A DNA stretch of 15,297 nt from contig JABLTI010000067.1 in NCBI GenBank assembly GCA_013166835.1, forward strand, positions 1-15,297, written 5' to 3'. Position 1 is the stretch's first letter. Each line of letters opens with the position of its first letter. The notes beneath the pieces were generated by a model. It saw only the letters and a program-made list of their open reading frames with translations, made no database searches and was not told the DNA's origin. The position numbers and the translations under genes were made by a program. This DNA comes from Promethearchaeati archaeon (lineage in GTDB: Archaea; Asgardarchaeota; Heimdallarchaeia; JABLTI01). Shown piece after piece: positions 1 through 15,297 of this stretch.

Positions 1-1068
1 AACAGGGTCATCTACTTGTGATCGACTACATTCACCTTCACAATGAGCAGTACAAATACGACCACAAACTGAGGGGAAGGGCATTTCTTCACGAATAAGT
101 TCTAATGATTCAGCAAATTTTCCTTCTGAAATAAGATTAACATAACCTTGGACATGAATATCAGCTGGACAACCATCTCTACATGGTGGAATCCCTTGTT
201 TGTCAATGCTATAACATTGAGGAACCGCCTGTGGGAAAGCTATGTTTATAGCTTTAGTAGTTCCTAATCCTTCATCAAATACACTTGTAATAACTGAGGG
301 ACAGGTTTCAACACAATCTCCACAGGAGGTGCATTTGTCTGGATCAACATATCTTGGCTGTTTTAGAATCTCTACTTCAAAATTCCCAACATAACCTGAA
401 ACATTCGTAACCTCAGATTTAGAATAAATTGTAATTTTTGGATGATCTGCTACTTCAGCCATTTTTGGTGTTAGTATACACGCTGAGCAATCTTGTGTTG
501 GGAATGTTTTATCTATTTGAGCCATTTTCCCACCAATCGTGGGTTCTTTTTCAACCAAAATGGTCTCAAATCCAAGTTTTCCTAATGCAAGGGAAGCTGT
601 AATACCAGCAATTCCCCCTCCAACAACCATAGCTTTTGGTGTGCTACCAACTGTATTAGGATCTAAAGGTACGAGTAAAGCTGCTCTATTGACTGCCATT
701 CGGACTAGATCTTTTGCTTTCTTTGTAGCACTATCTTTGTCATCTGTTACCCAACTAACATGTTCTCTGATGTTTGCCATTTCAAATAAGTATTTGTTTA
801 GTCCAGCTGCTTGCACAGTATTCCTGAAAGTTGTTTCGTGCATGTGTGGGCTACATGAAGCAACGATAACACGGTTTAAATTATGTTCAAGAACATCTGC
901 TTGAATACGCATCTGACTTGGTTTTGAACATGTATACTTGAGATTCTCAGCATGAGCTACATTATCAAGTGTCTTTGCATATTCTGTTACTTCTTTACAA
1001 TTAACCGTAGAAGCAATGTTTGTACCACAATCACAAATATATACACCAATTCTTATTTCTTCACTCAT
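1..1068 (-). CDS. hdrA: Large heterodisulfide reductase subunit A with inserted GltD/NfnB-type Fe-S domain (HdrL-like); 3' end runs off the window
   Basis: Manual translation from ATG at 1068 gives 356 codons with no stop: MSEEIRIGVYICDCGTNIA...VASCSPHMHE...MANIREHVSWV...VVGGGIAGITA...LVEKEPTIGGKMAQIDKTFPTQDCSACILTPKM...RYVDPDKCTSCGDCVETCP...AFPQAVP. These are HdrA motifs. It continues PPCRDGCP...GYVNLISEGKF...PFPSVCGRICTAHCEGEC (Fer4_20/GltD-like). AAGGAG lies 9 nt upstream of the start. Confidence 0.93.
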   Translation of the reverse strand, partial: MSEEIRIGVYICDCGTNIASTVNCKEVTEYAKTLDNVAHAENLKYTCSKPSQMRIQADVLEHNLNRVIVASCSPHMHETTFRNTVQAAGLNKYLFEMANIREHVSWVTDDKDSATKKAKDLVRMAVNRAALLVPLDPNTVGSTPKAMVVGGGIAGITASLALGKLGFETILVEKEPTIGGKMAQIDKTFPTQDCSACILTPKMAEVADHPKITIYSKSEVTNVSGYVGNFEVEILKQPRYVDPDKCTSCGDCVETCPSVITSVFDEGLGTTKAINIAFPQAVPQCYSIDKQGIPPCRDGCPADIHVQGYVNLISEGKFAESLELIREEMPFPSVCGRICTAHCEGECSRSQVDDPV

Positions 1069-1077
1069 ATTGGTTTG

Positions 1078-1083
1078 CTCCTT
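1078..1083 (-). promoter_or_regulatory. Shine-Dalgarno site (AAGGAG) of the hdrA-like gene
   Basis: The reverse complement reads AAGGAG-caaaccaat-ATG (9-nt spacer). Confidence 0.6.
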
Positions 1084-1405
1084 GCACCTAAAAGGGTGAT
1101 TGAGAGGTTAGTATTTGATACTTTGTTTAACTTTTACTATACACTGGGAAAATCAAACATTTTATTTTAATCTAGTCTACACTTATAATACAGACCTCTT
1201 TTATAAATTTAGCTTATAATTTCTTTTTATCTTCATTCTTTTTAAAAAAACCATTTTCGAGTCTCTACCCAATTTTGAAGTCTAATAATCTAGCTTGTGG
1301 GGGGGGAATTAATACAAAAATTCATAATAAAGTAATTATACAGTAAAGAAGGAATATCTCAAAAATTAAGTATTACATAATAAAAGATTAGAAAGGCGAA
1401 GTAAA

Positions 1406-2251
1406 ATGTATAGTTATGTTTCATTAAAAACAGAATGTCCCCATTGTGGGAAATCTCTAATGGATAAGAAAAAACTCATAGATCAAATTCCAAGCATTAA
1501 ATTAAAAATTAACTCAGATGATGCAGAAGGTATCATTAATTTTAGTGCTTTCTATGGAAGTTATAATTATTTAACAGATTTTGATATTGAGAAGGATAAA
1601 GAATACCATTTTTCCTGCCCCCACTGTAAAACAGAATTAAGTTCAGATATTACTTGTGATGAATGCTCTGCATCACTTATTCCGCTTAACATTAAGGACG
1701 GAGGAGTCATCAAATTTTGTTCAAGAGCAGGTTGTAAAAAACATAACGTAGTTTTCGAGGATCTCTCATCAATCCATCATTATTTCCAAGAAACCTATGA
1801 TGAGAACATTGTCCACGAGCCCCATACACCAGAAGAAGCTAAAGCTCATAAAGAATTAATTAAAAGTGGTACATTTCTAAGAATTTATTGCCCACACTGC
1901 AAAAAAAGCAATATTGAGAAAGGATCAGCGATCTTTCGGATTATAAATGGGAACGATGAAGCTGGGTATTTGATGCTAAGTCCTTATCTCAACGTTTTCA
2001 CTGCCAAATCTACTGTATATATTCCGGAGGGCGCAGTAATAAACGATATTCAATGTCCTCAATGTAAAACAACTTTACTTTCTGAGGAAACAAAATGTAA
2101 GGATTGTGAAGCCCCTGCAGTAGGTGTTTCTCTTGCTGCTTTAAGAAAACTAATTGATTTCTATTTCTGCTCTAAAAAAGGTTGTCATTGGCATAGCCTG
2201 AGTGAAGAAGATTTACATTATGTTTCATTAGAAGATAGTGATTACTGGTAG
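1406..2251 (+). CDS. Uncharacterised multi-Cys metal-binding (zinc-ribbon-like) protein with an internally duplicated domain; paralog 1
   Basis: 281 aa. Cys at 11/14/71/74/84/87/105/110 (+H113) and again at 162/165/217/220/231/234/255/260 (+H263). Clearly paralogous to 2464..3252. Confidence 0.85.
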   Translation: MYSYVSLKTECPHCGKSLMDKKKLIDQIPSIKLKINSDDAEGIINFSAFYGSYNYLTDFDIEKDKEYHFSCPHCKTELSSDITCDECSASLIPLNIKDGGVIKFCSRAGCKKHNVVFEDLSSIHHYFQETYDENIVHEPHTPEEAKAHKELIKSGTFLRIYCPHCKKSNIEKGSAIFRIINGNDEAGYLMLSPYLNVFTAKSTVYIPEGAVINDIQCPQCKTTLLSEETKCKDCEAPAVGVSLAALRKLIDFYFCSKKGCHWHSLSEEDLHYVSLEDSDYW

Positions 2252-2300
2252 AATAATTCCACAACATTTTCTCTTATTTTCACTTTAGTATTTAAATAAC

Positions 2301-2318
2301 ATTATTTTCGAAAATAAT
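2301..2318. promoter_or_regulatory. Perfect 18-bp palindrome, candidate operator or hairpin
   Basis: ATTATTTTCGAAAATAAT is self-complementary and lies in the intergenic region between the two Cys-rich paralogs. It is AT-rich and its function is inferred. Confidence 0.4.
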
Positions 2319-2463
2319 CAAATAATCTTTAATTTCATTAATAAAAGTTATATAATAACAAAGTCAATATTATAAAAAAAGTTAAGCATACCATACTGAG
2401 ATTTTTCCCGATTTTAATTATGCTTCATTTAAATAACATAACTATGCCTTAGGGGGCTGGTAA

Positions 2464-3252
2464 ATGAATGACTTAATATCATTAACAGTTTGGTGCCCGA
2501 ACTGCAGTAAATCGTTAATGGATAAAGAAAAACTAGTTGATGGAAAACCAAGTATTAGATTAGAAATTTCAGATAGTAAAAAGAAAGGAACAATTCTATT
2601 AAGCTCGTATTATGGGAGCTACAATTTCGATAGTGATTATGAAACCGAAACAGACAAAGAGTACACCTTTAGTTGTCCACAATGTGGAGATGTAATAACT
2701 TCTAATGTGAAATGTGAAGACTGCAAAGCAAAGATGATTCCTTTAAACATAGAAGGAATCGGTATTGTAAAGTTCTGCTCCCGATCAGGATGTAAACATC
2801 ACACTATTGAAGTAGAGGATCTGGAATATCTGGATTATTTCAAAGTTAAAAAAGAAATGCTAGAAAGCGGAACGTATTTGCGAACATTCTGTCCTCATTG
2901 TAGTAAAAGTAATGTGGACGGAAATGTTGTCAAGTTTCTAATCACTAACCAAAAAGGTGAAACGGGTGACTTATTCCTCAGTCCATACCTAAACTTGTTT
3001 ACTAATAAATCTACAATTGACATTCCTGAAGGTGAAATTGTAAAGGATATTAATTGTCCGCAATGTGGGTCTAGCCTAATTATTAAAGGTGCAAATTGTA
3101 AGGAATGCGCTTCACAAATTGTTGGATTAAACGTCGCTGCTGTAACCAGACTAATCGAGTTTCGTTTTTGTGCTAAGAAAGGTTGTCACTGGCATGGATT
3201 AAGTTCAGATGATATGGAATCTGTCTTATTAGAAGATAGTGAAGCATGGTAA
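2464..3252 (+). CDS. Uncharacterised multi-Cys metal-binding (zinc-ribbon-like) protein with an internally duplicated domain; paralog 2
   Basis: 262 aa with 16 Cys in the same spacing as paralog 1 (11/14/71/74/84/87/105/110; 143/146/198/201/212/215/236/241). Shared motifs are KSLMD, PSI, YGSYN, DKEY, FCSRxGC, LSPYLN, KST, IPEG, KKGCHWH and LEDSxxW. Confidence 0.85.
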   Translation: MNDLISLTVWCPNCSKSLMDKEKLVDGKPSIRLEISDSKKKGTILLSSYYGSYNFDSDYETETDKEYTFSCPQCGDVITSNVKCEDCKAKMIPLNIEGIGIVKFCSRSGCKHHTIEVEDLEYLDYFKVKKEMLESGTYLRTFCPHCSKSNVDGNVVKFLITNQKGETGDLFLSPYLNLFTNKSTIDIPEGEIVKDINCPQCGSSLIIKGANCKECASQIVGLNVAAVTRLIEFRFCAKKGCHWHGLSSDDMESVLLEDSEAW

Positions 3253-3294
3253 AAAACTAAGAAATAAAATTTTATAATCTGCGAGGATACCTCT

Positions 3295-3846
3295 ATGGTC
3301 ACAAGTAGTTCGAATAAAACATCTACAAAAGATTTTAAGCTTAACTCCAATGCTAAGCAGAAAATTAGTAAAATCCTAGAAACGTCGAATCATGATCCAA
3401 AGAATCTGATACGGATTCTTCAAGACTTACAAGACGAATTCCATTATTTGCCTGAAAAAATAATTTCTCATATTGCAAAGGAGTTGAAAATATCTGAACA
3501 CCATATATTTGGCGTTGCTACCTTTTATTCTCAATTTAAATTCATTAAACCTGGCAAACATGTAATCAGAGTTTGTATGGGAACAGCTTGCCATGTCCTA
3601 GGTGCACAATCCTTACTTGATAACTTGTCTCGAGATTTAGGAATAAACACTGGTGAGACAACAATAGATGATTTATTTAGCCTTGAAAGTGTATACTGTT
3701 TAGGTTGTTGTGCTTTAGCTCCAGTAATGGTGATTGATGAAGATGTCTATGGTAGTATGACAGCTGCGAAAGTAAATCGAATTTTGCGAAAATACCGCAA
3801 AGAAGCTAAGCCAAAACAAAGCAAAAGTGGAGCCAACAAAAAATGA
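3295..3846 (+). CDS. nuoE: NuoE/HydC(BfuC)-like [2Fe-2S] subunit
   Basis: GVATFYSQF, VCMGTACHV and CLGCCALAPV are NuoE-family [2Fe-2S] motifs. GAGG lies upstream and the stop overlaps the next start (ATGA). Confidence 0.93.
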   Translation: MVTSSSNKTSTKDFKLNSNAKQKISKILETSNHDPKNLIRILQDLQDEFHYLPEKIISHIAKELKISEHHIFGVATFYSQFKFIKPGKHVIRVCMGTACHVLGAQSLLDNLSRDLGINTGETTIDDLFSLESVYCLGCCALAPVMVIDEDVYGSMTAAKVNRILRKYRKEAKPKQSKSGANKK

Positions 3847-5720
3847 GCAATTTCTATTCAATGGTTAAACAAGCCAAAGCTTCTTGGGAAGCTCTACTAA
3901 ACCAAAAGAAACCAGTTATCTATGCTGGGGCAGCATCTTGCGGTCGGGCTGCTGGTATCTTACCAATAATCGAGGAATTAGAAGTTCTTTCCAAGGAAAT
4001 TCCACTAGACATAGTTGAAGTTGGTTGCATTGGTCCTTGCTACCTTGAACCCATTATAGGTATTCAAAAGAAGGATTCTTCCACTATTCTCTATAGCAAC
4101 GTCCAGGTGAGACAAGTACGAGAAATCGTAGAGAATTACCTAAATAAAGGAGATCCGCAAGTAGACAAAGCAATAGGCACTCTATCTGGTAACGGAATTG
4201 AAGGGATCCCATCCTTTTGGGAACATCCCATGATTAAAAATCAAGTACGCATTGTCCTAAAAAATTGTGGAATCATAGATCCAACAAATATCGACCACTA
4301 CTTGGCAATGGACGGATATCTTGGATTAAAAAATGCCCTTGCCATGAGTCCTGAGGAAGTAATCAAAGTAGTCTCTGATGCTGGTTTGCGTGGTAGAGGT
4401 GGTGCAGGATTTCCAACTGGTTTAAAGTGGAAATTTACTCGAGCCGAAAAAGACCAAGATAAGTATATCATCTGCAATGCTGATGAAGGGGATCCCGGAG
4501 CATTCATGAATAGATCACTAATAGAAGGTGATCCACATTCAGTTCTCGAAGGTATGATAATCGGCGCTTATGCTATAGGAGCACAAAAGGGTTACATTTA
4601 CTGTCGAGCAGAATATCCGTTAGCAATTGAACGATTTGAAAAAGCAATTGCTGATATGAGAGAACGGGATCTTCTTGGAGAAAACATTCTGAACAGCAAT
4701 TTTGATTTTGACATTGAAATCAAAAGGGGTGCTGGTGCTTTCGTATGTGGTGAAGAAACTGCCCTGATAGCCTCAGTTATGGGTGATCGTGGAATGCCTA
4801 GACAAAAACCCCCTTATCCTTCGCAAGAAGGGGTCTGGGGAAAACCCACAATCATAAATAATGTAGAAACACTTGGAACTGTCCCAGTTATTCTCAGAAT
4901 GGGGAAGACATGGTATGCCAAATACGGAACTGAACAATCTAAAGGCACAAAGACTTTCTCCCTTGTAGGAAAAATAAAGCGAACTGGATTAATTGAAGTC
5001 CCACTTGGCACTACATTACGAGAAGTAATTTTCGAAATTGGAGGAGGAGTTGCAGAGGAAAAGAATTTCAAAGCAATACAAGTTGGTGGACCTTCTGGTG
5101 GAACTATACCTTCAGCATTTATAGATGAACCATTAGACTATGAGGAGCTCACAAAATTAGGAGCAATTATGGGTTCAGGGGGTATTGTTGTAATTGATGA
5201 TGAAACCTGTGTTGTTGATCTTGCCAAGTACTTTTTAAAATTCACTGAAGCAGAATCTTGCGGAAAATGTGTTCCATGCCGAATTGGCAACAAACAACTA
5301 CTGATCCTCTTGGAGAAAATAACGGAAGGTAAAGGAACGATAGAAGATTTCGAACTTCTCGAAGAGTTTGCCCATACCGTTTCAGAAGGATCATTATGTG
5401 GATTAGGGAAAACAGCCCCAAACCCAGTAATTACTACACTGATGTATTTTAGAGATGAATATCGATCTCACGTGTTAGACAAACGATGTCCAGCGAAAGT
5501 CTGTAAGGAATTATTTGTTTATCAAGTGGATGAGGAAACATGCATTGGTTGCGAAATTTGTAGAAAACGATGCCCAACTGGTGCGGTTACGGGTGAGAAG
5601 AAGAAACCTCACGTAATTCATATTGAGGATTGCATAAAATGTGATGTTTGCTTCACGAACTGCCCAGCAAAAGCAATAAGAAAAATTGACAAGGTGGATG
5701 TGGAAATTGTTAGTAATTAA
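3843..5720 (+). CDS. nuoF: NuoF/HydB(BfuB)-like FMN/NAD(P)H-binding subunit with N-terminal thioredoxin-like domain and C-terminal 2x[4Fe-4S]
   Basis: GLRGRGGAGFPTG, CNADEGDPGAFMNR, GAGAFVCGEETAL, GGPSGG, ESCGKCVPCR, SLCGLG, H-x5-CPAKVC, CIGCEICRKRCP and CIKCDVCFTNCP. The N-terminus has SCG...GCIGPC. Confidence 0.95.
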   Translation: MSNFYSMVKQAKASWEALLNQKKPVIYAGAASCGRAAGILPIIEELEVLSKEIPLDIVEVGCIGPCYLEPIIGIQKKDSSTILYSNVQVRQVREIVENYLNKGDPQVDKAIGTLSGNGIEGIPSFWEHPMIKNQVRIVLKNCGIIDPTNIDHYLAMDGYLGLKNALAMSPEEVIKVVSDAGLRGRGGAGFPTGLKWKFTRAEKDQDKYIICNADEGDPGAFMNRSLIEGDPHSVLEGMIIGAYAIGAQKGYIYCRAEYPLAIERFEKAIADMRERDLLGENILNSNFDFDIEIKRGAGAFVCGEETALIASVMGDRGMPRQKPPYPSQEGVWGKPTIINNVETLGTVPVILRMGKTWYAKYGTEQSKGTKTFSLVGKIKRTGLIEVPLGTTLREVIFEIGGGVAEEKNFKAIQVGGPSGGTIPSAFIDEPLDYEELTKLGAIMGSGGIVVIDDETCVVDLAKYFLKFTEAESCGKCVPCRIGNKQLLILLEKITEGKGTIEDFELLEEFAHTVSEGSLCGLGKTAPNPVITTLMYFRDEYRSHVLDKRCPAKVCKELFVYQVDEETCIGCEICRKRCPTGAVTGEKKKPHVIHIEDCIKCDVCFTNCPAKAIRKIDKVDVEIVSN

Positions 5721-7275
5721 CGGAAGACAAGTACGCTACATAAAAGGTAAAACGATTCTTGAGACTGCCCGAGATAACAGTATTCATATTCCAAGTTTAT
5801 GTGCCCACGAACGACTGCCCTCTTTTGGAGCATGCAGATTATGCATGGTAAAAGTTAATGGAACTTCTGGATTCATGAATGCCTGTACAACACCAGTCAA
5901 GGATGATATGATCATAACTACTGACAGTTTAGAAATAAAGAAACTAAGAAGAGCTATTTTTGAACTGATTCTCTCAGAGCATCCAAGTAGCTGTATGGTT
6001 TGCGATCAAGCTGCTCATTGTGATAAGCTTAATTCCGGAGTCATGAAAGCTGGAGTGATAACTGGTTGCCATACTTGTCCAAATAGAGAGATGTGTGAAG
6101 TACGAATAGTTGCTGATGAATTAAACTTCAAAAGCATTCGATTCCCAATGTTTTACAAAGAACTCCCAATAGAGAGAACTGATCCATTTTTTGATCGAGA
6201 CTATAATTTATGCATTCATTGTGGAAGGTGTGTCAGAGTCTGTCAAGATGTAGAAGGAGCAAATATCCTAGTTTTCACAAAACGAGGACATGATACAAAG
6301 GTTGGAACATCTTTTGAGAAACCTCATATAGACACCGATTGCAAATTCTGTGGTCAATGTATAGATGTTTGTCCAACAGGAGCTTTATCTGCTCGAGGTC
6401 AGAAATGGTATGATTGTCCTGATGATCAATTCAGAACTACTTGTATGCTTTGTAACAAAGGTTGCAGATTTGAAGTCGACGTAAAGTGGGATCGAATCGT
6501 CGGGATGCGTCCAGATCCTGACTATAAAACATTGAAAACCGGGATATGTGTAAAAGGAAGATTCTGTATACCAGTATTATTCAACAATGTTGAACGTTTA
6601 AAATTCCCAAGGATGCTTAAAAACTTCAAATTATATCCAACAAATTGGGATGAAGTATCTCTCTATATTGCAGAAATGTTTGAGAAATATCCTCCATCAA
6701 AGATTGCAATTTATTTGTCTAATTTCTTAACCAACGAAGCAGAATATGTTTTCTTGAAATTTGCAGAACAACTTGAGATTACCACTATTTTGAGGAAACC
6801 CGAAGATTTAGAACAAATCACAAAGAAAGGTATTACAGTCCTGTATACAACTGAAGGATTACCAAATTTGAAGAAATACAAATCCTTGAAGCATATAATT
6901 TTCCAAGAGGTCTTTCCATCAGAGGGTTATGACCTTGCAGAAGTTATCCTACCCGTTGCTACATTTACTGAGCAATTTGGAACATATACAACAAAACGAG
7001 GACCAATGCCCATACAAAAAATAGTAAAAGCACCAGACCTTGCGCTAGAGGATTGGAAAATAGTCTGTAAGATAGCGAAAGAGCTTGATTTAACAGGATT
7101 CGATTTTATAGACACAGATGAGATAGATCAAGAAATTGGAAGAATGAAATATCAAACAGAGATAAAACCAGTGGATGAATACTATCTGAAGTATCGGGGA
7201 ACGCCAATCGCAGAGAAAGTGCCTGATTTTGACCTTCTTCTGAAGGCTAGAAAAGATAGGGAGAAACCGTGGTGA
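5698..7275 (+). CDS. NuoG/HydA-N/FdhA-like multi-Fe-S subunit (BfuA-like) with a vestigial molybdopterin-oxidoreductase domain
   Basis: [2Fe-2S] motif (IPSLC...GACRLC...NACTTP), His-[4Fe-4S] motif (EHPSSCMVC), 2x[4Fe-4S] (CIHCGRCVRVC, CKFCGQCIDVCP), Mo-family [4Fe-4S] (TTCMLCNKGC...CVKGRF) and remnants AEVILPVATFTE/DWKIV. No H-cluster motifs. The start is uncertain: TTG 5686, ATG 5698 or TTG 5707 (after AGGTGG). Confidence 0.85.
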   Translation: MWKLLVINGRQVRYIKGKTILETARDNSIHIPSLCAHERLPSFGACRLCMVKVNGTSGFMNACTTPVKDDMIITTDSLEIKKLRRAIFELILSEHPSSCMVCDQAAHCDKLNSGVMKAGVITGCHTCPNREMCEVRIVADELNFKSIRFPMFYKELPIERTDPFFDRDYNLCIHCGRCVRVCQDVEGANILVFTKRGHDTKVGTSFEKPHIDTDCKFCGQCIDVCPTGALSARGQKWYDCPDDQFRTTCMLCNKGCRFEVDVKWDRIVGMRPDPDYKTLKTGICVKGRFCIPVLFNNVERLKFPRMLKNFKLYPTNWDEVSLYIAEMFEKYPPSKIAIYLSNFLTNEAEYVFLKFAEQLEITTILRKPEDLEQITKKGITVLYTTEGLPNLKKYKSLKHIIFQEVFPSEGYDLAEVILPVATFTEQFGTYTTKRGPMPIQKIVKAPDLALEDWKIVCKIAKELDLTGFDFIDTDEIDQEIGRMKYQTEIKPVDEYYLKYRGTPIAEKVPDFDLLLKARKDREKPW

Positions 7276-7280
7276 AAAAG

Positions 7281-8141
7281 ATGTACGAAATCGTAGATAA
7301 AAAAGAAGAAGCACCAAATGTTCATCGAATTATCATTCGAGAACCAATGACTGCCGAGAAAGCACAACCCGGGCAATTTGCCATACTCATGCCTGATGAG
7401 AAAGGTGAAAGAATCCCTATGTCTATAGCTGATACTAACAAAGACACCTTCACAATCTTCCTCTTAGAATTAGGAATCTCCACAGCTAAAATCGCAACGT
7501 TAAACAAAGGTGACAAACTCTATTGTGTCGTTGGACCACTTGGGAAGCCATCAATAATAGAGAAGTATGGTCGAGTGATACTTGGTGGAGGGTGTTATGG
7601 AGTAGGTGCAATCTACCCGATAGCAAAAGCTTTGAAGGCAGCTGGAAATCACGTCACAACAATCATTGAAGCGAGAAACAAATACCTGCTTTACTTCGAA
7701 GAAGAATTAGCATCTGTTTCAGACGAGGTACATATAGCCACATCTGATGGATCAGTGGGAACAAAAGGACATGTCCAAGATGTTCTCGTGCAGCTAATAA
7801 GAGATGGAGAACGATATGATCATGCAAAATTCATCGGATGCACGTACATGATGTATAATTGCTCGAATATAACTGCACCATACAAGATACCAACAATGGT
7901 GTGTTTAAACACAATCATGCTAGATGGAACTGGTATGTGCGGTTGCTGCCGTGTTTCTGTTGATGGGAAAACGAAATTTGCTTGTGTTGATGGACCTGAA
8001 TTTGATGGTCATAAAGTGGACTGGGAAGAATTGATGAAGCGAAAGAAGTCCTACCAAATGGAAGAGATGATTTCCTATCAGACAGCTCCACACGTCTGTC
8101 GTGCGCTTGTAGAAACTATTCTAGGTGAGAACATTGAGTGA
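7281..8141 (+). CDS. nfnA: NfnA/SudB (sulfide/dihydroorotate dehydrogenase-like FAD/NAD-binding [2Fe-2S] subunit)
   Basis: PGQF, GERIPMSIAD, GPLGKP and DGTGMCGCCRV...FACVDGPEFDGHKVDW. ATG at 7281 is preceded by GGTGA (5-nt spacer). The ORF track starts at GTG 7269. Confidence 0.92.
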   Translation: MYEIVDKKEEAPNVHRIIIREPMTAEKAQPGQFAILMPDEKGERIPMSIADTNKDTFTIFLLELGISTAKIATLNKGDKLYCVVGPLGKPSIIEKYGRVILGGGCYGVGAIYPIAKALKAAGNHVTTIIEARNKYLLYFEEELASVSDEVHIATSDGSVGTKGHVQDVLVQLIRDGERYDHAKFIGCTYMMYNCSNITAPYKIPTMVCLNTIMLDGTGMCGCCRVSVDGKTKFACVDGPEFDGHKVDWEELMKRKKSYQMEEMISYQTAPHVCRALVETILGENIE

Positions 8142-9750
8142 AAAGAAGAAACCTCACACTAAAGAAAAGAAACCTGTTAAGCCAAAGATAGAGGAGAAGA
8201 AAGTAAAGAAAGCTCCCACTAAGACTTCTACAAAAACTCCCAAAAAAACACCGGTTAAAAAAGCTACCACGGAAAAGAAGCAAACACCTCCTAGACCACC
8301 TCGAGTAAAAATGAGTGAACAACCTCCAGAAGTCAGAATCAAGAATTTCGATGAAGTACCTTACGGTTTAACTCCTGAGCAAGCAATAGCGGAAGCTAAA
8401 CGTTGTCTTCAATGTGGTAAACCAAAATGTGTAGCTGGTTGCCCTGTTGAAGTTCAAATCCCTGAGTTTATTGGATTAATTGCTGAAGGAAAATTCGTAG
8501 AAGCTGCTTGTAAAATTAAAGAAACAAATGTTCTCCCAGCTGTTTGTGGTCGGGTCTGTCCCCAAGAAACACAATGTGAAGAAGTCTGTATTCTTGGAAG
8601 AAGACATGATCCAATTGCAATTGGTTGGTTGGAGAAATTCTGCGCAGATTATGAACGACTAGGTGGACACATCAAACTTCCAAAGAAGCAGAAAGATAAT
8701 GGTAAGAAAGTTGCAATAGTAGGCTCTGGACCCGCTGGTTTAACAGTGGCTGGAGACCTAACACTCCTAGGGTATTCTGTAACAATTTTCGAAGCCTTCC
8801 ACAAAGGTGGAGGAGTATTAGTCTATGGAATTCCAGAATTTCGATTACCAAAAGAAATCGTTGATATTGAAATAAACTACCTAGAAAGACTTGGTGTAGA
8901 AGTCAAGTATAATCATGTAATAGGTAGGTGTAAATCAATCGACGAGTTGTTCTCAAAAGATGCCTATCATGCTGTGTTCATAGCTGTAGGAGCTGGCTTG
9001 CCCCGATTCATGAATATGCCCGGAGAAAATCTCAATGGGGTCTATTCAGCTAATGAATACCTCACACGATCAAATCTCATGAAAGCTTATCTGTTCCCTG
9101 ATTACAATACTCCGTTGATTCATGGTCGCAGTGTAACTGTGGTGGGCGGAGGAAATGTAGCTATGGATTGTGCAAGAACAGCCATGCGACTGGGTTCAGC
9201 AAAGGTGACTTTGGTTTATCGGCGAGCTAGAGAGCAGATGCCTGCAAGAAATGAAGAAATTCATCATGCAGAAGAAGAAGGAATCATCTTCAAATTGCTT
9301 TCAAACCCAGTGGAAATATTTGGTGACGAAGAAGGTCGGGCGACCAAGATTAAATGTCAAAGATATGAACTAGGAGAACCCGATGATTCCGGCAGAAGAA
9401 GACCAATCCCAATTGAAAACGATTACTTCGAATATGATACAGACATTGTTATCATCGCAATCGGAAACAATTCAAATCCCTTAATTGCAGCCACTACTCC
9501 AGATATTGAAATAAATAAATGGGGAAACATCGTCGTTGATAGCCTTGGAAGAACTAGTAAAAAATTCGTTTATGCAGCTGGTGACATCGTTACAGGTGCA
9601 GCAACAGTCATCTCTGCAATGGGTGGAGCAAGACAAGCCGCTATCGGTATTCATTACGATTTAATGGGTGAGATAGAACCAGATATCCCCACTGCTTGCG
9701 AAATGCCTGATGAGTGGTTAGATGAAGAAAAAGACGAACCAGTTACTTAA
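8134..9750 (+). CDS. nfnB: NfnB/SudA (GltD-like NADPH-dependent FAD/[4Fe-4S] subunit) with Lys-rich N-terminal extension
   Basis: EAKRCLQC, CVAGCP, VCGRVCPQETQCE, GSGPAG, YGIPEFRLPK, GGGNVAMDCAR, YRR and AGDIVTGAATVISAMG. It directly follows nfnA. The likely start is TTG 8134 after AGGTGA; the track gives GTG 8125. Confidence 0.92.
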   Translation: MSEKKKPHTKEKKPVKPKIEEKKVKKAPTKTSTKTPKKTPVKKATTEKKQTPPRPPRVKMSEQPPEVRIKNFDEVPYGLTPEQAIAEAKRCLQCGKPKCVAGCPVEVQIPEFIGLIAEGKFVEAACKIKETNVLPAVCGRVCPQETQCEEVCILGRRHDPIAIGWLEKFCADYERLGGHIKLPKKQKDNGKKVAIVGSGPAGLTVAGDLTLLGYSVTIFEAFHKGGGVLVYGIPEFRLPKEIVDIEINYLERLGVEVKYNHVIGRCKSIDELFSKDAYHAVFIAVGAGLPRFMNMPGENLNGVYSANEYLTRSNLMKAYLFPDYNTPLIHGRSVTVVGGGNVAMDCARTAMRLGSAKVTLVYRRAREQMPARNEEIHHAEEEGIIFKLLSNPVEIFGDEEGRATKIKCQRYELGEPDDSGRRRPIPIENDYFEYDTDIVIIAIGNNSNPLIAATTPDIEINKWGNIVVDSLGRTSKKFVYAAGDIVTGAATVISAMGGARQAAIGIHYDLMGEIEPDIPTACEMPDEWLDEEKDEPVT

Positions 9751-9803
9751 AAACGAGTCATAAGAGAAACTCTTATGACGTTTCATTTCTTTTTATTTTA
9801 TTT
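9751..9803 (+). terminator. Stem-loop plus T-rich tract ending the redox operon
   Basis: GTCATAAGAG-AAA-CTCTTATGAC (9757-9779) is a perfect 10-bp stem, extendable by AAAC/GTTT. It is followed by TTTCATTTCTTTTTATTTTATTT and starts right after the nfnB stop. Confidence 0.75.
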
Positions 9804-9814
9804 GAGGAATTAAC

Positions 9815-10204
9815 ATGCTTGGCTCCGCAACTCTAGATGCTATGTTGTGGTTTTATTTTGTAAATGCAATTCTATTAATTGTTCATGAAATAGATTCAGC
9901 TTACTGGAAAGAATGGGAACTATTCAAGATTCCTGGAGGAATAACTAGCTTTCTAATTATTCATTTTCCATTAATAGGGGCAATCTTGTTTGGATTGGCA
10001 GCTATTACACAATGGTACGTTGTAGGATTAGTCTTTTCTTTCATTTTGTGTGTTGGCGGACTATTTGCTTTTACGATTCACACATATTTTCTCAAGAAGG
10101 GAAAAGAGGAATTTAACTCTCCAATATCAATTGCAATCCTAATAGCTATACTTGTTGTATCAGTAACCCAACTAGCACTAACTTTTCTAGTTATATTTAT
10201 TTAA
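9815..10204 (+). CDS. Small four-TM membrane protein (resembles DUF6713/HXXEE-like family)
   Basis: 129 aa with four hydrophobic segments and the motif HEIDSAYWKEWELF. GAGGA lies upstream. The family assignment is from memory and was not searched. Confidence 0.7.
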   Translation: MLGSATLDAMLWFYFVNAILLIVHEIDSAYWKEWELFKIPGGITSFLIIHFPLIGAILFGLAAITQWYVVGLVFSFILCVGGLFAFTIHTYFLKKGKEEFNSPISIAILIAILVVSVTQLALTFLVIFI

Positions 10205-10281
10205 TGTACTGAGAAAAATAATAAATACAAAGAATCAAAGTAGTTGCAGCTAAAAGTAATAAAGTAAAGGAATTTCTAACT

Positions 10282-11181
10282 ATGCGTAAAGTAGCTATAG
10301 TATCAGATGGTACAGCTGATATTCCCAAAGATTTAATTGAAAAATATAATATCCATATTATTCCTATTTTTGTTGTTTTTGAAACGGAGAAATTTTCTAT
10401 ATACGGTGATTATGGCGATATATCAAAAGAGGAGTTTTATGAACGATTAAGAACCTGTGACGAATTACCCACAACTGGTATTGCATCTCAAAGTTATTTT
10501 ATTTCAGCTTTTGAAGCAGCAGCAAAAGAAGCTAAATCTGTGATTGGCATCTTTGTCTCAGAGAAATTATCAGCTCATTTTGTGGAAGCAAAAAGGATAG
10601 CTGCAACATTAGAGGATATTGATATAACTGTTGTTGATGCACGAGCAGCAGCTATACCGTTGGGATTAACAGCCTTGGAAGCTGCAATTATGGCTCATGA
10701 AGGGAAATCAAAAGAAGAAATCCTTACTCGATTGGAAGAAGAACTGATACCTCAGAACAAAATGGTTGTAGTATTGGATACTCTCCAGAATCTTTATCGA
10801 TCGGGAAGAATTGGCAAAATTCAAAAGTTTTTTGGGCAATCATTAAAAATCAAACCAATCATTTGCTATAATAAAGATGGATCTGTTGGGAGTAGAGGGA
10901 AGATTAGAGGAGATAGAGAGGAAGTTATTAAGAGATTCAAATTCTTGGCTCCCTTTGTAGTAAAGCACGCAATAACTGATAATATATTTATTTGGCATTC
11001 AGAGTATAAAGAACCTGCAAAAGAGCTTTTAGAAATTATGGAACAACACAATGATAAAGGAAAGAAAATAAGAATTGTCAATGCAGGACCAGTGGTTGGT
11101 ACTCATATTGGAGAAAAAACTATTGGGATAGTTTATATTGGTCCTTATAATGAAAATTGGATGAATATGAAAGAAGCATAA
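10282..11181 (+). CDS. degV: DegV family (FakB-like) fatty-acid-binding protein
   Basis: VAIVSDGTADIP, LPTT, VSEKLS, ITVVD, LYRSGRIG, LKIKPII and GPVVGTHIG. The length of 299 aa is typical of DegV. Confidence 0.9.
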   Translation: MRKVAIVSDGTADIPKDLIEKYNIHIIPIFVVFETEKFSIYGDYGDISKEEFYERLRTCDELPTTGIASQSYFISAFEAAAKEAKSVIGIFVSEKLSAHFVEAKRIAATLEDIDITVVDARAAAIPLGLTALEAAIMAHEGKSKEEILTRLEEELIPQNKMVVVLDTLQNLYRSGRIGKIQKFFGQSLKIKPIICYNKDGSVGSRGKIRGDREEVIKRFKFLAPFVVKHAITDNIFIWHSEYKEPAKELLEIMEQHNDKGKKIRIVNAGPVVGTHIGEKTIGIVYIGPYNENWMNMKEA

Positions 11182-11182
11182 C

Positions 11183-11204
11183 TTTATCTTCTTCTTTTTT
11201 CTCT
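11183..11204 (+). terminator. T-rich archaeal-type terminator after degV
   Basis: Pyrimidine tract TTTATCTTCTTCTTTTTTCTCT lies immediately after the stop, in a convergent intergenic region. Confidence 0.4.
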
Positions 11205-11292
11205 AATGTATCATTACCATCATTTAGTATTTTTCCTAATGATATTTGTCAATTAACTCTTTTGGTACTCGAATGAAGGGACATGAGAATTA

Positions 11293-12741
11293 TTAATTAT
11301 TTTTGAAGAATTCAGTATTCAACGAAACAATATTACTCATACCATACTTCTCTTTTTTTACTAATCCCTTTACAATTAAACGCCCCACAGCTCTTGAAAC
11401 TGTAGATTTTGATAATGCTGTTTGTCTTACTAAATCAGCTTGAGTGAGTTCTGTCTTATCAATAATTATTTGAAAAATTGTAAACTCTCTTTCTGTCAAT
11501 ATTTCCTTCCATTTATCAAAATCAATTTTATCAATAATATCTTCTTCTGCAATTAAATCAGTATCACTTAATTTGTCACTTTTAACATAATTTTTCTTAT
11601 AATAATATACAATTCCAACAGCTGTTGATACTCCAAAAATCATTGCTGAAAGAATTATTGCTACAATTGCGCCAGTTGATAAAACAGCAATCTTGCCCGA
11701 AATCTGGATGTTTACTGGAAAAGACACTAAAGAACACTGTAATGATATATTGCAATCAAAATTCCTTGGAGTTGATCTATCAATTATAATCTTCAAGTAC
11801 ATAGTTTCTCCAATATTTAATTCCCAATCAGTGATATTGGCATCTACCCAATCAGGTTTGATAATTGAACCATCCAATTTTTGATTTTCGAAATTAGTTA
11901 TAGTAAATACCTTTTCCATTGGTTCACTATCCTTTCTGATTCTACCTGCATCCCATTCAGATGGTGTAATTTCTAGGTCATCAATAACAATTAGACTTGT
12001 ATAATTTATATCAGCAAAGAAATCATAGCGATTCACCTCTAGCCAAGATAATACCAGTTTATTACTGACTGTTGATATAGAATGTGGTGGAGGAACACAT
12101 TTCAATAATGAAATTTCTCTATCACAAATTATAATCACATTTTGATTGCCTATTCGTCTTAACCAATTAACCCCTAGTTCGTAATTATAATGAGTTAGGA
12201 AATCTTTAGTGTCCTGTAAGTAGGTTATTTTAACATTACGTACTAATCCAACTGGAATTTCAGAGGATAATGCAAATTGGATTTTCGTACTATTACCAAT
12301 TACTTCCTCATAATGATCTAGTTCAATAGTGTTAGCTTCTATAATTTGTACTCCTCTTATCTCTCCAAAAACAGATATTTCTTCTTGCGATGTGTAAAAC
12401 CTTGATTTAGTTTCACTTGGAGAATCTGAATCAACTCCAACGAAATTAATATCCAGTTGTATTTGTGTTGTCCTCAAATGTAAATAACAGGTGATTCTTG
12501 CTGAAGCAATATCATTCAATGAATTCGTTGACAACACTTGATTATTAAAATCAAATCCTTGTTTACCATTTCTTATCAGGTCATCATTCTTCTGCAAAAT
12601 TGAATCTGATGAATTATCATCAATAATTGACATTTTCTGAGAATAAATTGGATAATTACAAGTAATAACTAAAAGAGCAGAGATTAGACTAGTATAAACT
12701 AGTATTGAAAAAAAAGTTTTTAGTAAACTATTTTTGATCAA
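11293..12741 (-). CDS. Membrane-tethered winged-HTH regulator (signal/TM, extracellular beta-rich domains, TM, cytoplasmic MarR-like wHTH; COG2512-like)
   Basis: N-terminal hydrophobic segment, a TM (AIVAIILSAMIFGVSTAVGIVYYYKK) and a C-terminal LTERE..IFQII...LTQADLVRQTALSKSTVSRAVGRLIVKGLVKKEKYG. TTG start. Confidence 0.8.
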   Translation of the reverse strand: MIKNSLLKTFFSILVYTSLISALLVITCNYPIYSQKMSIIDDNSSDSILQKNDDLIRNGKQGFDFNNQVLSTNSLNDIASARITCYLHLRTTQIQLDINFVGVDSDSPSETKSRFYTSQEEISVFGEIRGVQIIEANTIELDHYEEVIGNSTKIQFALSSEIPVGLVRNVKITYLQDTKDFLTHYNYELGVNWLRRIGNQNVIIICDREISLLKCVPPPHSISTVSNKLVLSWLEVNRYDFFADINYTSLIVIDDLEITPSEWDAGRIRKDSEPMEKVFTITNFENQKLDGSIIKPDWVDANITDWELNIGETMYLKIIIDRSTPRNFDCNISLQCSLVSFPVNIQISGKIAVLSTGAIVAIILSAMIFGVSTAVGIVYYYKKNYVKSDKLSDTDLIAEEDIIDKIDFDKWKEILTEREFTIFQIIIDKTELTQADLVRQTALSKSTVSRAVGRLIVKGLVKKEKYGMSNIVSLNTEFFKNN

Positions 12742-12972
12742 TGAATCCCACTCACTTTATTATTTCTACAATGATTTATTTTAGGTATTTTATAGAAACG
12801 TTAATTTTCTCATAGGAAAATAATATAGAAGAGCAGATTCGATCTTCATCTGTATAGGTCTTCGTAATCTTTCAGACTGAATTTCGTTTTTTGCTCTTCA
12901 TTTTTTACCAAGTTACTAATTCTTATGCAGATAGTTTTATTTCGTTTTCAGTTTTCCATTTCACAATATTTC

Positions 12973-14340
12973 TTATATTGGAAGGTAAATTACATCAATT
13001 ACTTCTTCAGTAACATCATCAATTACAATGCGAATTCCAATTGTTTCACCAGGTATTAATGATTCATTAAAAGTTAGAATGTCATCAATTAAGTCAATGT
13101 ACCAAAAGCCTTCGTCGAAACACATGTAAACTTCATAACCAGTAACGGTAGCTAGCCAATCTTGAACTTCTGGATCAGATAAAGCAATTGCGAGTGCTTC
13201 TTCACCAGTTAGATTTGGATTAGGTAAGTCGTGAATATAGTAATAGAAAATCTCACCAGTAGCATCGATGATATCAACTTTAGCATATTCGTTGTAGTTG
13301 TAAATATTTTCAAAATAGACATACCAATACCCATAGAAGCTGTCAAATACTGCACTTACACCGTAGAGTGACAAACTATCTAAGAAAGTACTAACTTCTG
13401 GTTGTGATTCTGCTATAGCGATGACTTCATCAAATGTTAAATTTGGAGCCAAACTCTTTGTTATGTCTACTACTTCACCAGTTTCATCGTCAACAGTGAT
13501 AGAAATCCAATTTTGATATGGATTATCTAATGCCCAATAATCAACGATCCATACTCCTGCATTTACGTCAATGTTCTTTGTAGCAAAATTATTTGCACTT
13601 TTTAGAAAAGATTCGTTTCCAAACCAAATGGTATCATAGTAATTGATAGTTCTTCCAAACTCTGGATTGAATACAATCCATTGCTGAACTTCTGCTAAAG
13701 CTTCTACGATAACTATAATCTCTTCTTCAGTATGAATAGCATTCTCAAGCGGATCATAAATTTCGTAAAATATGACTGAACCATTATTGTTTGATATGAT
13801 AACAAAGGGATAAGATCGTATTGTATCAGACCAATAATCAACATACCAGAGCTCTAAACCATCATACCAAGCATTAATGGATATATCACCTGCTTGGGAA
13901 TCAAGCCATTCAGCGATTTCTGGTATGGCATTAGCTATTGCGATAATTTCTTGTTCAGTATAGTTCGGTTTGCTTGGAGTATACACTGCGAAATATAGTA
14001 CATCACTTGTTAAAGCATCGATCTCAACGTAAGCGTAATTCATCCAATAATAGATGTCTTCAGCATAAGTGAAATTATCAGCATAAAACTCAACAATCCA
14101 CTTCTCATCAATACGATTTGCAGAAACAGAACTGATTTCATTTTCTTCTAAAAATGTCGCAACTTCTGGAATTGCACTAGCAATATCTATAGCTTCTTGG
14201 TAAGTAATGTAATCGGGGTTTAATCTTTGGTTTCTAGCAATTAATGTCCCTGTTAGAATAGCACTTGTTACTAATGTTGCAAGAATAAGTGATATTACGA
14301 GTGTTGTTGATGCTCGTTTGGATAATGTTTTTTGTTTCAT
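12973..14340 (-). CDS. Acidic secreted or membrane-anchored protein with five PepSY-like repeats
   Basis: Basic N-terminus and a hydrophobic helix, then five repeats of T-x2-E-[AIV]-x2-I...[PA]E[VI]-x2-[FW]...W-[IY]-[VI]-x-[FYL]...[ID]D-x-T-[GSE]-[ED]-[VI]. Repeat 2 is degenerate at the end. Confidence 0.75.
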   Translation of the reverse strand: MKQKTLSKRASTTLVISLILATLVTSAILTGTLIARNQRLNPDYITYQEAIDIASAIPEVATFLEENEISSVSANRIDEKWIVEFYADNFTYAEDIYYWMNYAYVEIDALTSDVLYFAVYTPSKPNYTEQEIIAIANAIPEIAEWLDSQAGDISINAWYDGLELWYVDYWSDTIRSYPFVIISNNNGSVIFYEIYDPLENAIHTEEEIIVIVEALAEVQQWIVFNPEFGRTINYYDTIWFGNESFLKSANNFATKNIDVNAGVWIVDYWALDNPYQNWISITVDDETGEVVDITKSLAPNLTFDEVIAIAESQPEVSTFLDSLSLYGVSAVFDSFYGYWYVYFENIYNYNEYAKVDIIDATGEIFYYYIHDLPNPNLTGEEALAIALSDPEVQDWLATVTGYEVYMCFDEGFWYIDLIDDILTFNESLIPGETIGIRIVIDDVTEEVIDVIYLPI

Positions 14341-14375
14341 TTTTTATCATTCCGATTTTTTGTGGTAACCTCATC

Positions 14376-14447
14376 TGTTTCAATAGAAACATAGACTGAA
14401 ACATCCTAAAAAGCTAAACATAAAACTGGTTCACTTTTTTTGAACCA
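14376..14447. promoter_or_regulatory. Cluster of related inverted repeats upstream of the PepSY-repeat gene (candidate operator)
   Basis: TGGTTCA-N7-TGAACCA (14427-14447), TGTTTC-N4-GAAACA (14376-14391) and TGTTTCA-N14-TGAAACA (14376-14403). Confidence 0.5.
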
Positions 14448-14492
14448 AGCATAAAATAGACATTTCTGAATTTTTAAGAGAATTTTTTCATA

Positions 14493-15188
14493 TTAATCTT
14501 CAAATATCTTGTAGTTATATTCAATCCAAGCTTTTTTCATATCAGGATTTTTATTAAGGTACGAATCAACAAGCTCTTTTGGTACCTGATTAAAAGGACA
14601 TGAGAAGTTAACACACTTAATGCAGATGCGAGTAAACAAGAAGGTGAAACTGAAAATAACACCAATAACAGAGACACCAAGCAACACTAGAAGAGTAATG
14701 AAGAATGTTGTTTCGGCAGGTAAATTGGAAGCTATCCTAACAATACTTGGAATTTGTCCAGCGAGGGGAAGAGTACCAAATAAGACAAAACCAATGATTA
14801 GAAGCACTCGCTCAAACAAATTCATAGGTTCAGGATGATAACGATAAAATCTTATGAAACCGTGATTTGCAAGGCAATGAAGCATAACACCTTCCCTTGA
14901 ATAATAAGGACAATGACTGCACAAAATGCGAGTTTCCACAATAAAGAAGACAGTGAAATATCCGAGAAGTACTCCTATTGGCCACCAAATGCCAGTGAAA
15001 ACTCCACCAACGATAACAGAACCAAAAGTAATCAAAAGAGCAGGACTCATGGAATACAGAAACCTAATAACGTGTTTTCGATCCCAACGACAATCTAACT
15101 GAGTCTTATTTGAACAATCTTGACAATTAGATTCATCTTGCCAAGTGCAACAAGGTGTATAAGTTTTCTTTTGGTGAATTTCTGTAAT
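14493..15188 (-). CDS. Cys-rich integral membrane protein of unknown function; start probably upstream of the annotated ATG (15050), candidate ATT at 15188
   Basis: The frame stays open to 15209 and encodes CCTWQDESNCQDC...LDCRW before the first TM. Further motifs are LCSHCPYY, HCLANHG and CIKCVNFSCPFNQVP. GGAG lies 10 nt upstream of ATT 15188. The 3' part is solid; the start is uncertain. Confidence 0.7.
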   Translation of the reverse strand: MTEIHQKKTYTPCCTWQDESNCQDCSNKTQLDCRWDRKHVIRFLYSMSPALLITFGSVIVGGVFTGIWWPIGVLLGYFTVFFIVETRILCSHCPYYSREGVMLHCLANHGFIRFYRYHPEPMNLFERVLLIIGFVLFGTLPLAGQIPSIVRIASNLPAETTFFITLLVLLGVSVIGVIFSFTFLFTRICIKCVNFSCPFNQVPKELVDSYLNKNPDMKKAWIEYNYKIFED

Positions 15189-15297
15189 TCTATTTCGACT
15201 CCAAAATTCTCATTGCGTTCATTCTTATAATAATTTATCTAGTTAGATGTTCTAATGGAACAGTTAATTTATCTAATTCAAGTTGCTTGTTGCATTT

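Follow-up and report, generated by a model that had tools for sequence, protein, structure and literature searches.

What two tandem genes for cysteine-rich proteins contribute to the electron-bifurcating enzymes encoded directly downstream is the question raised by a 15,297-nucleotide stretch of a Promethearchaeati archaeon genome (contig JABLTI010000067.1, positions 1 to 15,297; the whole stretch is hereafter the window). The two proteins, here named ZnA and ZnB, are each built of two copies of a domain (the unit) with eight Cys and one His, and they precede genes for NuoEFG-like Bfu subunits and for the transhydrogenase subunits NfnS and NfnL. As judged from sequence, the unit family is probably a modular add-on to NfnSL and Bfu oxidoreductases, its mechanism being put forward below as a hypothesis, and ZnA, ZnB and their homologs are probably an overlooked part of the NADH/NADPH/ferredoxin electron-transfer machinery. 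A preliminary description of the window had proposed an undescribed component tied to the Bfu-Nfn genes, and this is supported: no match to a characterized family overturns it, and the homologs adjoin Nfn or Bfu genes. The two genes and their parts are the following.

1406-2251, plus strand: ZnA, a two-unit Cys-rich protein of 281 amino acids with 16 Cys and an isoelectric point (pI) of 5.7, recognized as an open reading frame (ORF) with 704 near-length homologs at E ≤ 1e-3.
1406-1765, plus strand: ZnA unit 1 (type 1), residues 1-120, of the kind fused elsewhere to the NuoE C-terminus, as assigned from alignments and a tree.
1745-1846, plus strand: ZnA inter-unit linker, residues 114-147, predicted flexible (predicted local distance difference test, pLDDT, <50).
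1862-2248, plus strand: ZnA unit 2 (type 2), residues 153-281, of the kind fused elsewhere to the NfnL N-terminus.
2228-2248, plus strand: ZnA C-terminal tail LEDSDYW, predicted disordered, a candidate docking peptide.
2252-2463, no strand: ZnA-ZnB spacer of 212 nucleotides, AT-rich; a relative tolerates insertions and deletions (indels) there.
2464-3252, plus strand: ZnB, a paralog of 262 amino acids with 16 Cys and a pI of 5.25.
2464-2823, plus strand: ZnB unit 1.
2863-3249, plus strand: ZnB unit 2.
3229-3249, plus strand: ZnB C-terminal tail LEDSEAW.

The association of the unit family with Nfn/Bfu genes is solid. It was assessed in 79 genomic loci, fetched after 203 relatives had been cut to the best 80, and these were scored with the window's own proteins by tblastn. 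Of the 74 loci having at least 400 nucleotides downstream, 73 have a member of the NfnS/NfnL or NuoE/F (Bfu) set as the next gene after the Zn gene, the one exception being L036, where a restriction-modification methylase follows; in the remaining 5 of the 79 loci the contig ends less than 400 nucleotides after the Zn gene. Most frequently the Zn gene is followed by NfnS on the same strand (52/79 loci), with a median gap of 42 nucleotides and a gap of at most 60 nucleotides in 38 of these 52; NuoE follows in 10/79, and in 11/79 the Zn gene is convergent with the 3' end (NfnL) of a nuoEFG-nfnSL operon. De novo clustering of the ORFs, with the window included, recovered NfnS and NfnL in 70 of the 80 loci each, NuoE in 44 and NuoF in 43, as well as unrelated neighbors, namely a PPDK-like protein (23 loci), glutamate dehydrogenase (15) and rubrerythrin (12). 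The link between the homologs and NAD(P)H/Fe-S oxidoreductase genes, on which the preliminary description had made its proposal depend, therefore holds.

The units are also joined covalently to these enzymes, by two independent fusions, one per unit type. NfnL carries an in-frame unit 2 at its N-terminus in 52 of the 79 loci, giving proteins of about 595-625 amino acids, and the fused unit aligns with unit 2 of ZnB up to residue 257, in most cases from residue 133 onward. Homologs of greater length numbered 185, and all 120 of those listed carry PF07992 (the GltD/NfnL set) and none PF01257; the fusion was confirmed with Pfam in L010 and L006. Unit 1 is instead found at the C-terminus of NuoE in 80 metagenome loci, being of type 1 in 80/80 (ZnA/ZnB residues about 2-11 to 113-125), and NuoF follows in all 43 loci with at least 2.5 kilobases (kb) downstream. 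A unit-profile search of 1.84 billion representatives returned 446 clusters at E ≤ 1e-3 (213 at E ≤ 1e-10), less than 50% identical to one another. Among the best 150 of these that were listed, the 36 representatives of odd length were scanned with Pfam, and they comprised nine with NuoE (PF01257) followed by the unit, four NfnL pieces, four in which a CBS pair comes after the unit, a single cyclase/AAA_16 protein and a single Mur-ligase-like protein. A quick tree, which took 60 of 92 single-unit-sized representatives and left 32 aside by file order, has its deepest split (Shimodaira-Hasegawa-like approximate likelihood ratio test, 94) between type 2 (second units of two-unit proteins and NfnL-fused units) and type 1 (first units, NuoE-fused and CBS-fused units). 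The fusion to NuoE-like proteins mentioned in the preliminary description is thus real (9/36 scanned representatives and the 80 metagenome loci), and the fusion to the NfnL N-terminus, unforeseen there, is even commoner.

The gene rows around these fusions vary. The NuoE-unit 1 fusions stand in a large, apparently uncharacterized operon family (L082-L161, e.g., L087:9929-16487 and L093:9935-16462; also L185:3372-13150), which starts with a histidine kinase (GAF), a sigma-54 response regulator, a 115-amino-acid Cys-rich protein and NuoE-unit 1, and ends with NuoF or a NuoF-GltD fusion of about 1060-1100 amino acids, a 225-amino-acid NuoG-N-like Fe-S protein and a GltB-like flavin mononucleotide (FMN) protein of 527-533 amino acids (PF01645). 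One Bacteroidales genome has both such an operon and a two-unit gene adjoining nuoEFG-nfnSL. In L010:13649-20203 and 19 other loci, the row Zn-NfnS-unit2-NfnL is followed by NuoE, NuoF, a 1234-amino-acid StnC-like fusion (Fer2_4, GltD, NuoG ferredoxin and molybdopterin domains) and rubrerythrin, and such loci therefore hold two transhydrogenase-type enzymes in one gene row. In L068:2535-5210, NfnS, unit 2 and NfnL share one open frame of 892 codons, either a triple fusion or an assembly error. Outside these enzymes, a type-1 unit is N-terminal to CBS-domain pairs in P0303, P0312, P0318 and P0327 (one of them named from Thermoanaerobaculia) and C-terminal to an adenylate-cyclase/AAA_16 signaling protein in P0313, and P0326 has a unit fused to a Mur-ligase-like protein. 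These CBS, cyclase and Mur-ligase-like fusions hint at a more general binding or sensing role. In the Bacteroidales genome G202, a stand-alone 136-amino-acid unit adjoins hypE- and hypD-like genes (L184:6759-7169), and a weak unit-bearing ORF of 206 amino acids lies beside a NiFe-hydrogenase large-subunit-like gene and a DDE transposase (L186:6901-7521).

The unit itself is defined by its Cys pattern, which is far beyond chance in the alignments. In unit 1 of ZnA the spacing is C11-x2-C14-x56-C71-x2-C74-x9-C84-x2-C87-x17-C105-x4-C110-x2-H113, and in unit 2 it is C162-x2-C165-x51-C217-x2-C220-x10-C231-x2-C234-x20-C255-x4-C260-x2-H263; these two spacing classes, x56/x9/x17 for unit 1 and x51/x10/x20 for unit 2, recur family-wide. 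The four half-proteins of ZnA and ZnB share eight invariant Cys as well as P12, G42, S47, F104, G109 and H113 (ZnA unit 1 numbering), and no exception to the eight Cys occurs among 43 aligned units drawn from three architectures. In the best 150 of the 446 representative clusters, from which the conservation statistics were taken, all eight Cys are kept in 121 of the 131 full-span units (seven in nine units and four in one), and 132 of 151 non-gap cells contain the motif His. No CxxCxxC, CxxCxxCxxxCP or CxxCH motif was found in the ZnA or ZnB sequences. The preliminary description had given eight Cys and a His with this spacing, the Cys shared between the paralogs, and no CxxCxxC or CxxCH, all of which is borne out by the alignment of the four halves and by both sequences; its unit size of about 100 amino acids is not, since the folded unit has about 115-130, and its C-terminal motif FCx[RK]xGCxxH applies within the window, while only C-x4-C is fixed in the family.

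ZnA and ZnB align end to end with 47% identity (E 7e-102, BLASTP), the single gap of the alignment being 19 residues of the inter-unit linker that are missing from ZnB. Unit 1 and unit 2 are 28-32% identical, against the 47% between the two proteins, and the unit types split deepest in the quick tree; the previously suggested order of events, an internal duplication before the gene duplication, agrees with both. Among the fetched loci, a ZnB ortholog (78% identity) was found in L003 only. The gene duplication was therefore probably recent and local, as the tandem pair is shared by this locus only, and the idea of an obligatory ZnA/ZnB heterodimer was dropped on the same ground. The window genome holds just these four units and one bona fide NfnL. 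In a relative about 91% identical over 1200-5200, the same four genes are included on one contig, and all 12 of the indels listed (of 15) fall in intergenic DNA, those of the ZnA-ZnB spacer at 2282-2445 (run X9).

The best homologs are named Heimdallarchaeota, Asgard or Thorarchaeota, and many more, with 44-50% identity, belong to Bacteroidales, Ignavibacteria, Cloacimonadota and further groups. The family was found in only 3 of the 201 sampled genomes of the window's phylum (the window genome, G000, included), all from one genus of 59. This patchy archaeal distribution and the high identity across domains suggest that the gene set may have been transferred between bacteria (Bacteroidota/Ignavibacteriota-like) and one Heimdall-type archaeal genus. 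Public records assign some archaeal-type loci to Bathyarchaeia or Zixibacteria, possibly through noise in binning or labeling.

Known families account for fragments of the unit at most. Among the generic zinc ribbons, PF13248 (Zn_ribbon_3) reached a summed score of 37.1 for ZnA against a cut-off of 27, with no single stretch passing alone, and 17.1 for ZnB; DZR (PF12773) gave 26.8 for ZnA and 21.7 for ZnB against a cut-off of 27.3, and Zn_ribbon_6 (PF07191) gave 23.7 and 17.8, respectively, against 25. The part that scores is the central CPxC-x9/10-CxxC pair (knuckles 2 and 3), and like the ribbons it has beta-hairpin knuckles. However, the models describe a motif of 25-45 amino acids, whereas the unit is an all-beta domain of 115-130 amino acids which adds an N-terminal CPxC and a C-terminal Cx4C-x2-H knuckle. 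Read from these scores, the units of ZnA and ZnB contain a ribbon-like element, yet the zinc-ribbon models do not describe them. HypA (PF01155) also remains below its cut-off (24.3 bits against 28.9), residues 64-90 matching profile positions 66-95 of 112 with no stretch passing alone. The RIG-I-like receptor C-terminal domain and Yippee/Mis18, as zinc-pinned beta-sheet domains, are counted among the closest known systems.

The tRNA ligase names found in public records have a similar origin. ZnA residues 64-154 match positions 132-220 of the 391 of tRNA-synt_1g (PF09334), with 23.5 bits against a cut-off of 20.1, a partial likeness to the zinc-knuckle insertion of methionyl-tRNA synthetase (MetRS); no other part of this profile is matched, and ZnA and ZnB are without the Rossmann-fold catalytic core. 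The genuine MetRS of the genome is encoded elsewhere (G000:C197), and the profile comparison with it by hhalign covers 25 columns of one CxxC-x9-CxxC ribbon with a probability of 14%, for which reason the idea of a MetRS-derived domain was dropped. Labels given to homologs there include 'class I tRNA ligase family protein', 'methionyl-tRNA synthetase' and 'ssDNA-binding Zn-finger/Zn-ribbon topoisomerase 1'; all of them go back to the partial ribbon match and are wrong, the tRNA ligase names being over-annotations.

No rubredoxin, ferredoxin (Fer4) or other Fe-S family in Pfam or NCBIfam matched ZnA or ZnB at E ≤ 0.01. The unit is like rubredoxin and desulforedoxin Fe(Cys)4 proteins in its paired CxxC knuckles, including CPxC, in being small and acidic and in its tie to NAD(P)H oxidoreductases, and differs from rubredoxin in being twice as large, with four knuckles. 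A Gly after the second Cys is typical of rubredoxin knuckles; in the unit it is unconserved, being present in 41, 24 and 52 of 121 units for knuckles 1, 2 and 3, with K or R commonest in knuckle 4. Profile searches of the PDB sequences gave no relative of the ZnA/ZnB unit at E < 0.01, and none of the solved NfnSL or Bfu chains contains a unit of this type; the window's host genes are otherwise close relatives of NfnSL (NfnAB) of T. maritima and P. furiosus and of BfuABC (Nfn-Bfu/Stn, HydABC, NiFe-Bfu). A search of the ESM Atlas returned only the unit family's own clusters. Literature on Bfu/Nfn bifurcation, on NfnAB and zinc ribbons, on Heimdallarchaeota NuoEF/Nfn and on NuoE/HoxE/HydC extensions, searched without supplementary tables, yielded no description of a ZnA-type protein. 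The available parts of PMC9304861 and PMC12018979 mention no such subunit, and the zinc of which they speak is a different thing, a Zn ion that the NuoF-like subunit carries at its B2 cluster site. PMC8612252 looked promising and turned out to concern an unrelated ribbon on heliorhodopsins. As far as found, the unit family is therefore without a Pfam or NCBIfam model, a solved relative or a published description.

In the AlphaFold2 model, ZnA consists of two confident all-beta units (mean pLDDT 75.9), with pLDDT <50 over the linker (residues 114-147) and the end of the tail (residues 278-281); unit 2 modeled singly reaches a pLDDT of 88.3 and a predicted template modeling score of 0.80. The four Cys knuckles of each unit suggest two Cys4 metal sites, in which the middle pair would be ribbon-like and the outer pair would hold the two ends of the domain together. 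Structural Zn is weakly favored over Fe, because the Gly after the knuckles is unconserved and no Fe-S or rubredoxin model matches. The family is acidic (median pI 5.57, n=75), and E276, D277, S278 and W281 of ZnA are nearly invariant across it, so that the acidic, predicted-disordered tail EDSxEW-COOH of the free proteins may be a docking or contact element. A complex prediction with NfnL, NuoE and ZnA scored 0.12 against a mark of 0.32 with controls unfolded, and counts neither for nor against binding.

Here it is proposed, with about an even chance of being right, that ZnA and ZnB are non-catalytic, metal-stabilized adaptor subunits which dock at the ferredoxin-side ends of NuoE and NfnL. 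The family would be specific to two kinds of NAD(P)H:ferredoxin oxidoreductase complex, NfnSL and BfuABC (NuoEFG-like), each acidic all-beta module being pinned by its four Cys knuckles into two Cys4 metal sites, probably with structural Zn. The type 1 unit would act beside the C-terminus of NuoE/BfuC, and the type 2 unit beside the N-terminus of NfnL, at the domain with two [4Fe-4S] clusters; the free units are assigned to these ends because each type is covalently fused there elsewhere. With one unit of each type and a flexible linker between them, ZnA and ZnB would attach to the low-potential ends of the two modules encoded downstream, Bfu and NfnSL, and might also bridge or cap these ends; candidate contacts are the acidic C-terminal tail and a basic N-terminal extension of NfnL (see below). 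In NfnAB, the N-terminal domain of NfnL is a two-cluster domain leading to ferredoxin, and the Fer4_20 match at the NfnL N-terminus is the sole support here for ferredoxin-side clusters at that end. For the other end, the available part of PMC12018979 places the NuoE C-terminus at the ferredoxin site of the solved archaeal Nfn-Bfu. What we infer in this proposal is that the proteins bind metal, associate physically with the enzymes, dock at these sites and may affect the flow of electrons, whereas the motif, the family, its neighborhood, the two fusions and the two-domain architecture are observed directly.

Several observations weigh against this proposal. The T. maritima (4ylf) and P. furiosus (5jca) enzymes are active two-subunit Nfn enzymes not known to contain such a protein, and the module would therefore be dispensable for the basic Nfn reaction. 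The Zn genes of the 11 convergent loci are not co-transcribed with the Nfn/Bfu operon, and many NfnS-linked loci are without NuoE within 10 kb, so a bridge between NuoE and NfnL can be at most part of the explanation. Units also occur with CBS pairs, in the cyclase/AAA_16 and Mur-ligase-like proteins, as many stand-alone single units, and beside hypE/hypD and a NiFe-hydrogenase gene, which means that their role may exceed docking on Nfn and Bfu enzymes. The presence of the family in only 3 of the 201 sampled genomes of the window's phylum counts on the same side.

If the sites held Fe instead (rubredoxin- or desulforedoxin-like) or small Fe-S clusters, the units could be a redox-active relay that extends the electron wire at the ferredoxin port, with the free two-unit proteins as a soluble or tethered carrier; this is unlikely, although a plausible rival. 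CPxC knuckles are also the rubredoxin motif, the protein is acidic as ferredoxins are, its eight near-invariant Cys are stricter than in many structural ribbons, and rubrerythrin ends 12 loci, but mononuclear Fe(Cys)4 centers normally have potentials far above that of ferredoxin and would be poor low-potential relays. In both fusions the unit does sit where the host enzyme has its low-potential end, a position taken in part from the available text of PMC12018979; the lack of any rubredoxin, ferredoxin or Fe-S match, the unconserved Gly and the missing CxxCxxC nevertheless speak against a relay, and the CBS and cyclase fusions better fit a binding or sensing module. Those same fusions (CBS pairs in 4/36 scanned representatives, and the adenylate-cyclase/AAA_16 protein) point toward a redox or metabolite sensor, in which a zinc-thiolate (or iron) switch would gate ferredoxin access or activity according to oxidants or the NAD(P)H state, as do the histidine kinase and sigma-54 response regulator ahead of the NuoE-unit 1 operons, the rubrerythrin neighbor in the 12 loci, and the absence of the family from well-studied NfnSL enzymes, which gives it the look of an add-on. 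A sensor is nevertheless doubtful, as constitutive subunits more typically show such tight operon coupling and such covalent joining to catalytic subunits, and no known switch motif was detected in the Pfam and NCBIfam scans. A bolder form of the relay, in which the two-unit proteins are Fe-bearing connectors with type 1 in the BfuBC ferredoxin port (NuoE C-terminus) and type 2 in the NfnL port, so that two bifurcating modules of different mechanism would exchange low-potential electrons directly and without free ferredoxin in a hard-wired 'double bifurcation' supercomplex, is improbable.

It is quite improbable, too, that the proteins are assembly or maturation factors, HypA-like metallochaperones that insert metal or Fe-S cofactors into NuoE- or NfnL-type subunits and are absent from the mature enzyme. 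The weak HypA match and the G202 units beside hypE/hypD and, as a weak copy, beside the hydrogenase large subunit would fit such a role, as would the Zn that solved Bfu enzymes carry at a former cluster site according to the part of PMC12018979 that was available; however, the HypA match is one CxxC ribbon below the cut-off, the hyp neighborhood occurs in one genome only, and the permanent fusions to NfnL and NuoE suggest that the unit works in the mature enzyme. Binding to nucleic acids is common among zinc ribbons, and some database names (tRNA ligase, topoisomerase Zn-finger) would suit an unrelated zinc-ribbon protein, such as a nucleic-acid-binding regulator or translation-related factor, that is a neighbor by chance. 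An acidic family twice fused independently to redox subunits is unlikely to bind nucleic acids, and with a neighborhood conserved across bacteria and archaea and a MetRS likeness of 25 columns of one ribbon, this last explanation is highly improbable.

Anaerobes keep NADH, NADPH and ferredoxin in balance mainly through NfnSL and Bfu enzymes, whose structures and mechanisms are a field of active study. In many Bacteroidota, Ignavibacteriota and Cloacimonadota the unit is part of NfnL, in a second large operon family it is attached to NuoE, and elsewhere, including an Asgard-type archaeon, it is present in free two-unit proteins; the models built on the enzymes of T. maritima, P. furiosus, S. 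ovata and T. sibiricus are thus without a component that many environmental lineages possess. Both fusion points lie at the ferredoxin side, and if the module acts there, it bears on the hand-over or control of low-potential electrons. Recognition of the unit also puts right a naming error that recurs in databases ('class I tRNA ligase', 'methionyl-tRNA synthetase', 'topoisomerase Zn-finger'), and a new domain family would be justified.

The genes that accompany ZnA and ZnB in the window are the following.

3295-3846, plus strand: NuoE/BfuC-like [2Fe-2S] subunit (PF01257, E 1.5e-49).
3843-5720, plus strand: NuoF/BfuB-like FMN subunit with a C-terminal 2x[4Fe-4S] domain (Pfam and PDB relatives).
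5686-7275, plus strand: NuoG/BfuA-like Fe-S subunit with a partial molybdopterin-type domain (Pfam; PDB relatives 6tg9_A, 9bov_A and 7t2r_A).
7269-8141, plus strand: NfnS (NfnA)-like flavin adenine dinucleotide (FAD)/[2Fe-2S] subunit (NF004862, E 4.7e-106; PF10418).
8125-9750, plus strand: NfnL (NfnB)-like subunit (4ylf_B, E 4.7e-155).
8125-8310, plus strand: N-terminal extension of NfnL, 62 open codons, Lys/Pro/Thr-rich and basic, before the canonical start MSEQPPEVR (ATG 8311).
1-1068, minus strand: HdrA/HdrA2-like flavoprotein gene, which runs off the window, its N-terminal 356 amino acids being visible.

The ATG of nuoE is at 3295 and the ZnB stop codon ends at 3252, leaving a gap of 42 nucleotides, exactly the distance given in the preliminary description. 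The best PDB relatives of NuoF are the bifurcating BfuB subunits 7t2r_B, 8oh5_B, 9bov_B and 9n5u_B, and NfnL is close to the solved large subunits of T. maritima (4ylf_B) and P. furiosus (5jca_L) Nfn; since these closest solved relatives are Bfu and Nfn subunits, 'Bfu plus Nfn operon' is a fair label for the context.

The NfnL extension, which in the window ends PPRPPRVK-M, is present in all seven archaeal loci (the window, L003, L004, L006, L007, L008 and L009), has 28-70 codons and ends RPPRPPR or a close variant, at the position where other (bacterial) lineages carry the fused unit 2. Bacterial NfnL genes of the convergent type have only a short MAKISPKKTP lead.

A scan of 1000-3400 for promoters and terminators stayed at chance level, with bacterial models that are not applicable to archaea. 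In the metatranscriptome run X20, short contigs of a relative, 90-95% alike, cover 2929-3059 (inside ZnB) and parts of nuoE and nuoF, and none covers ZnA; these contigs come from a relative in the RNA library and show neither transcription of the window locus nor its absence.

Ahead of the operon, the HdrA/HdrA2-like gene is divergent from the ZnA promoter region and, among the fetched loci, lies beside the operon only in L003 (83% identity). Behind it, 9815-15050 of the window encodes DUF6713, a DegV/FakB-like protein and then a minus-strand protein of 482 amino acids with a C-terminal MarR-type winged helix-turn-helix, together with two minus-strand ORFs (455 and 185 amino acids) that have no match in Pfam or NCBIfam, the 185-amino-acid ORF being present in L003 and L007 as well.

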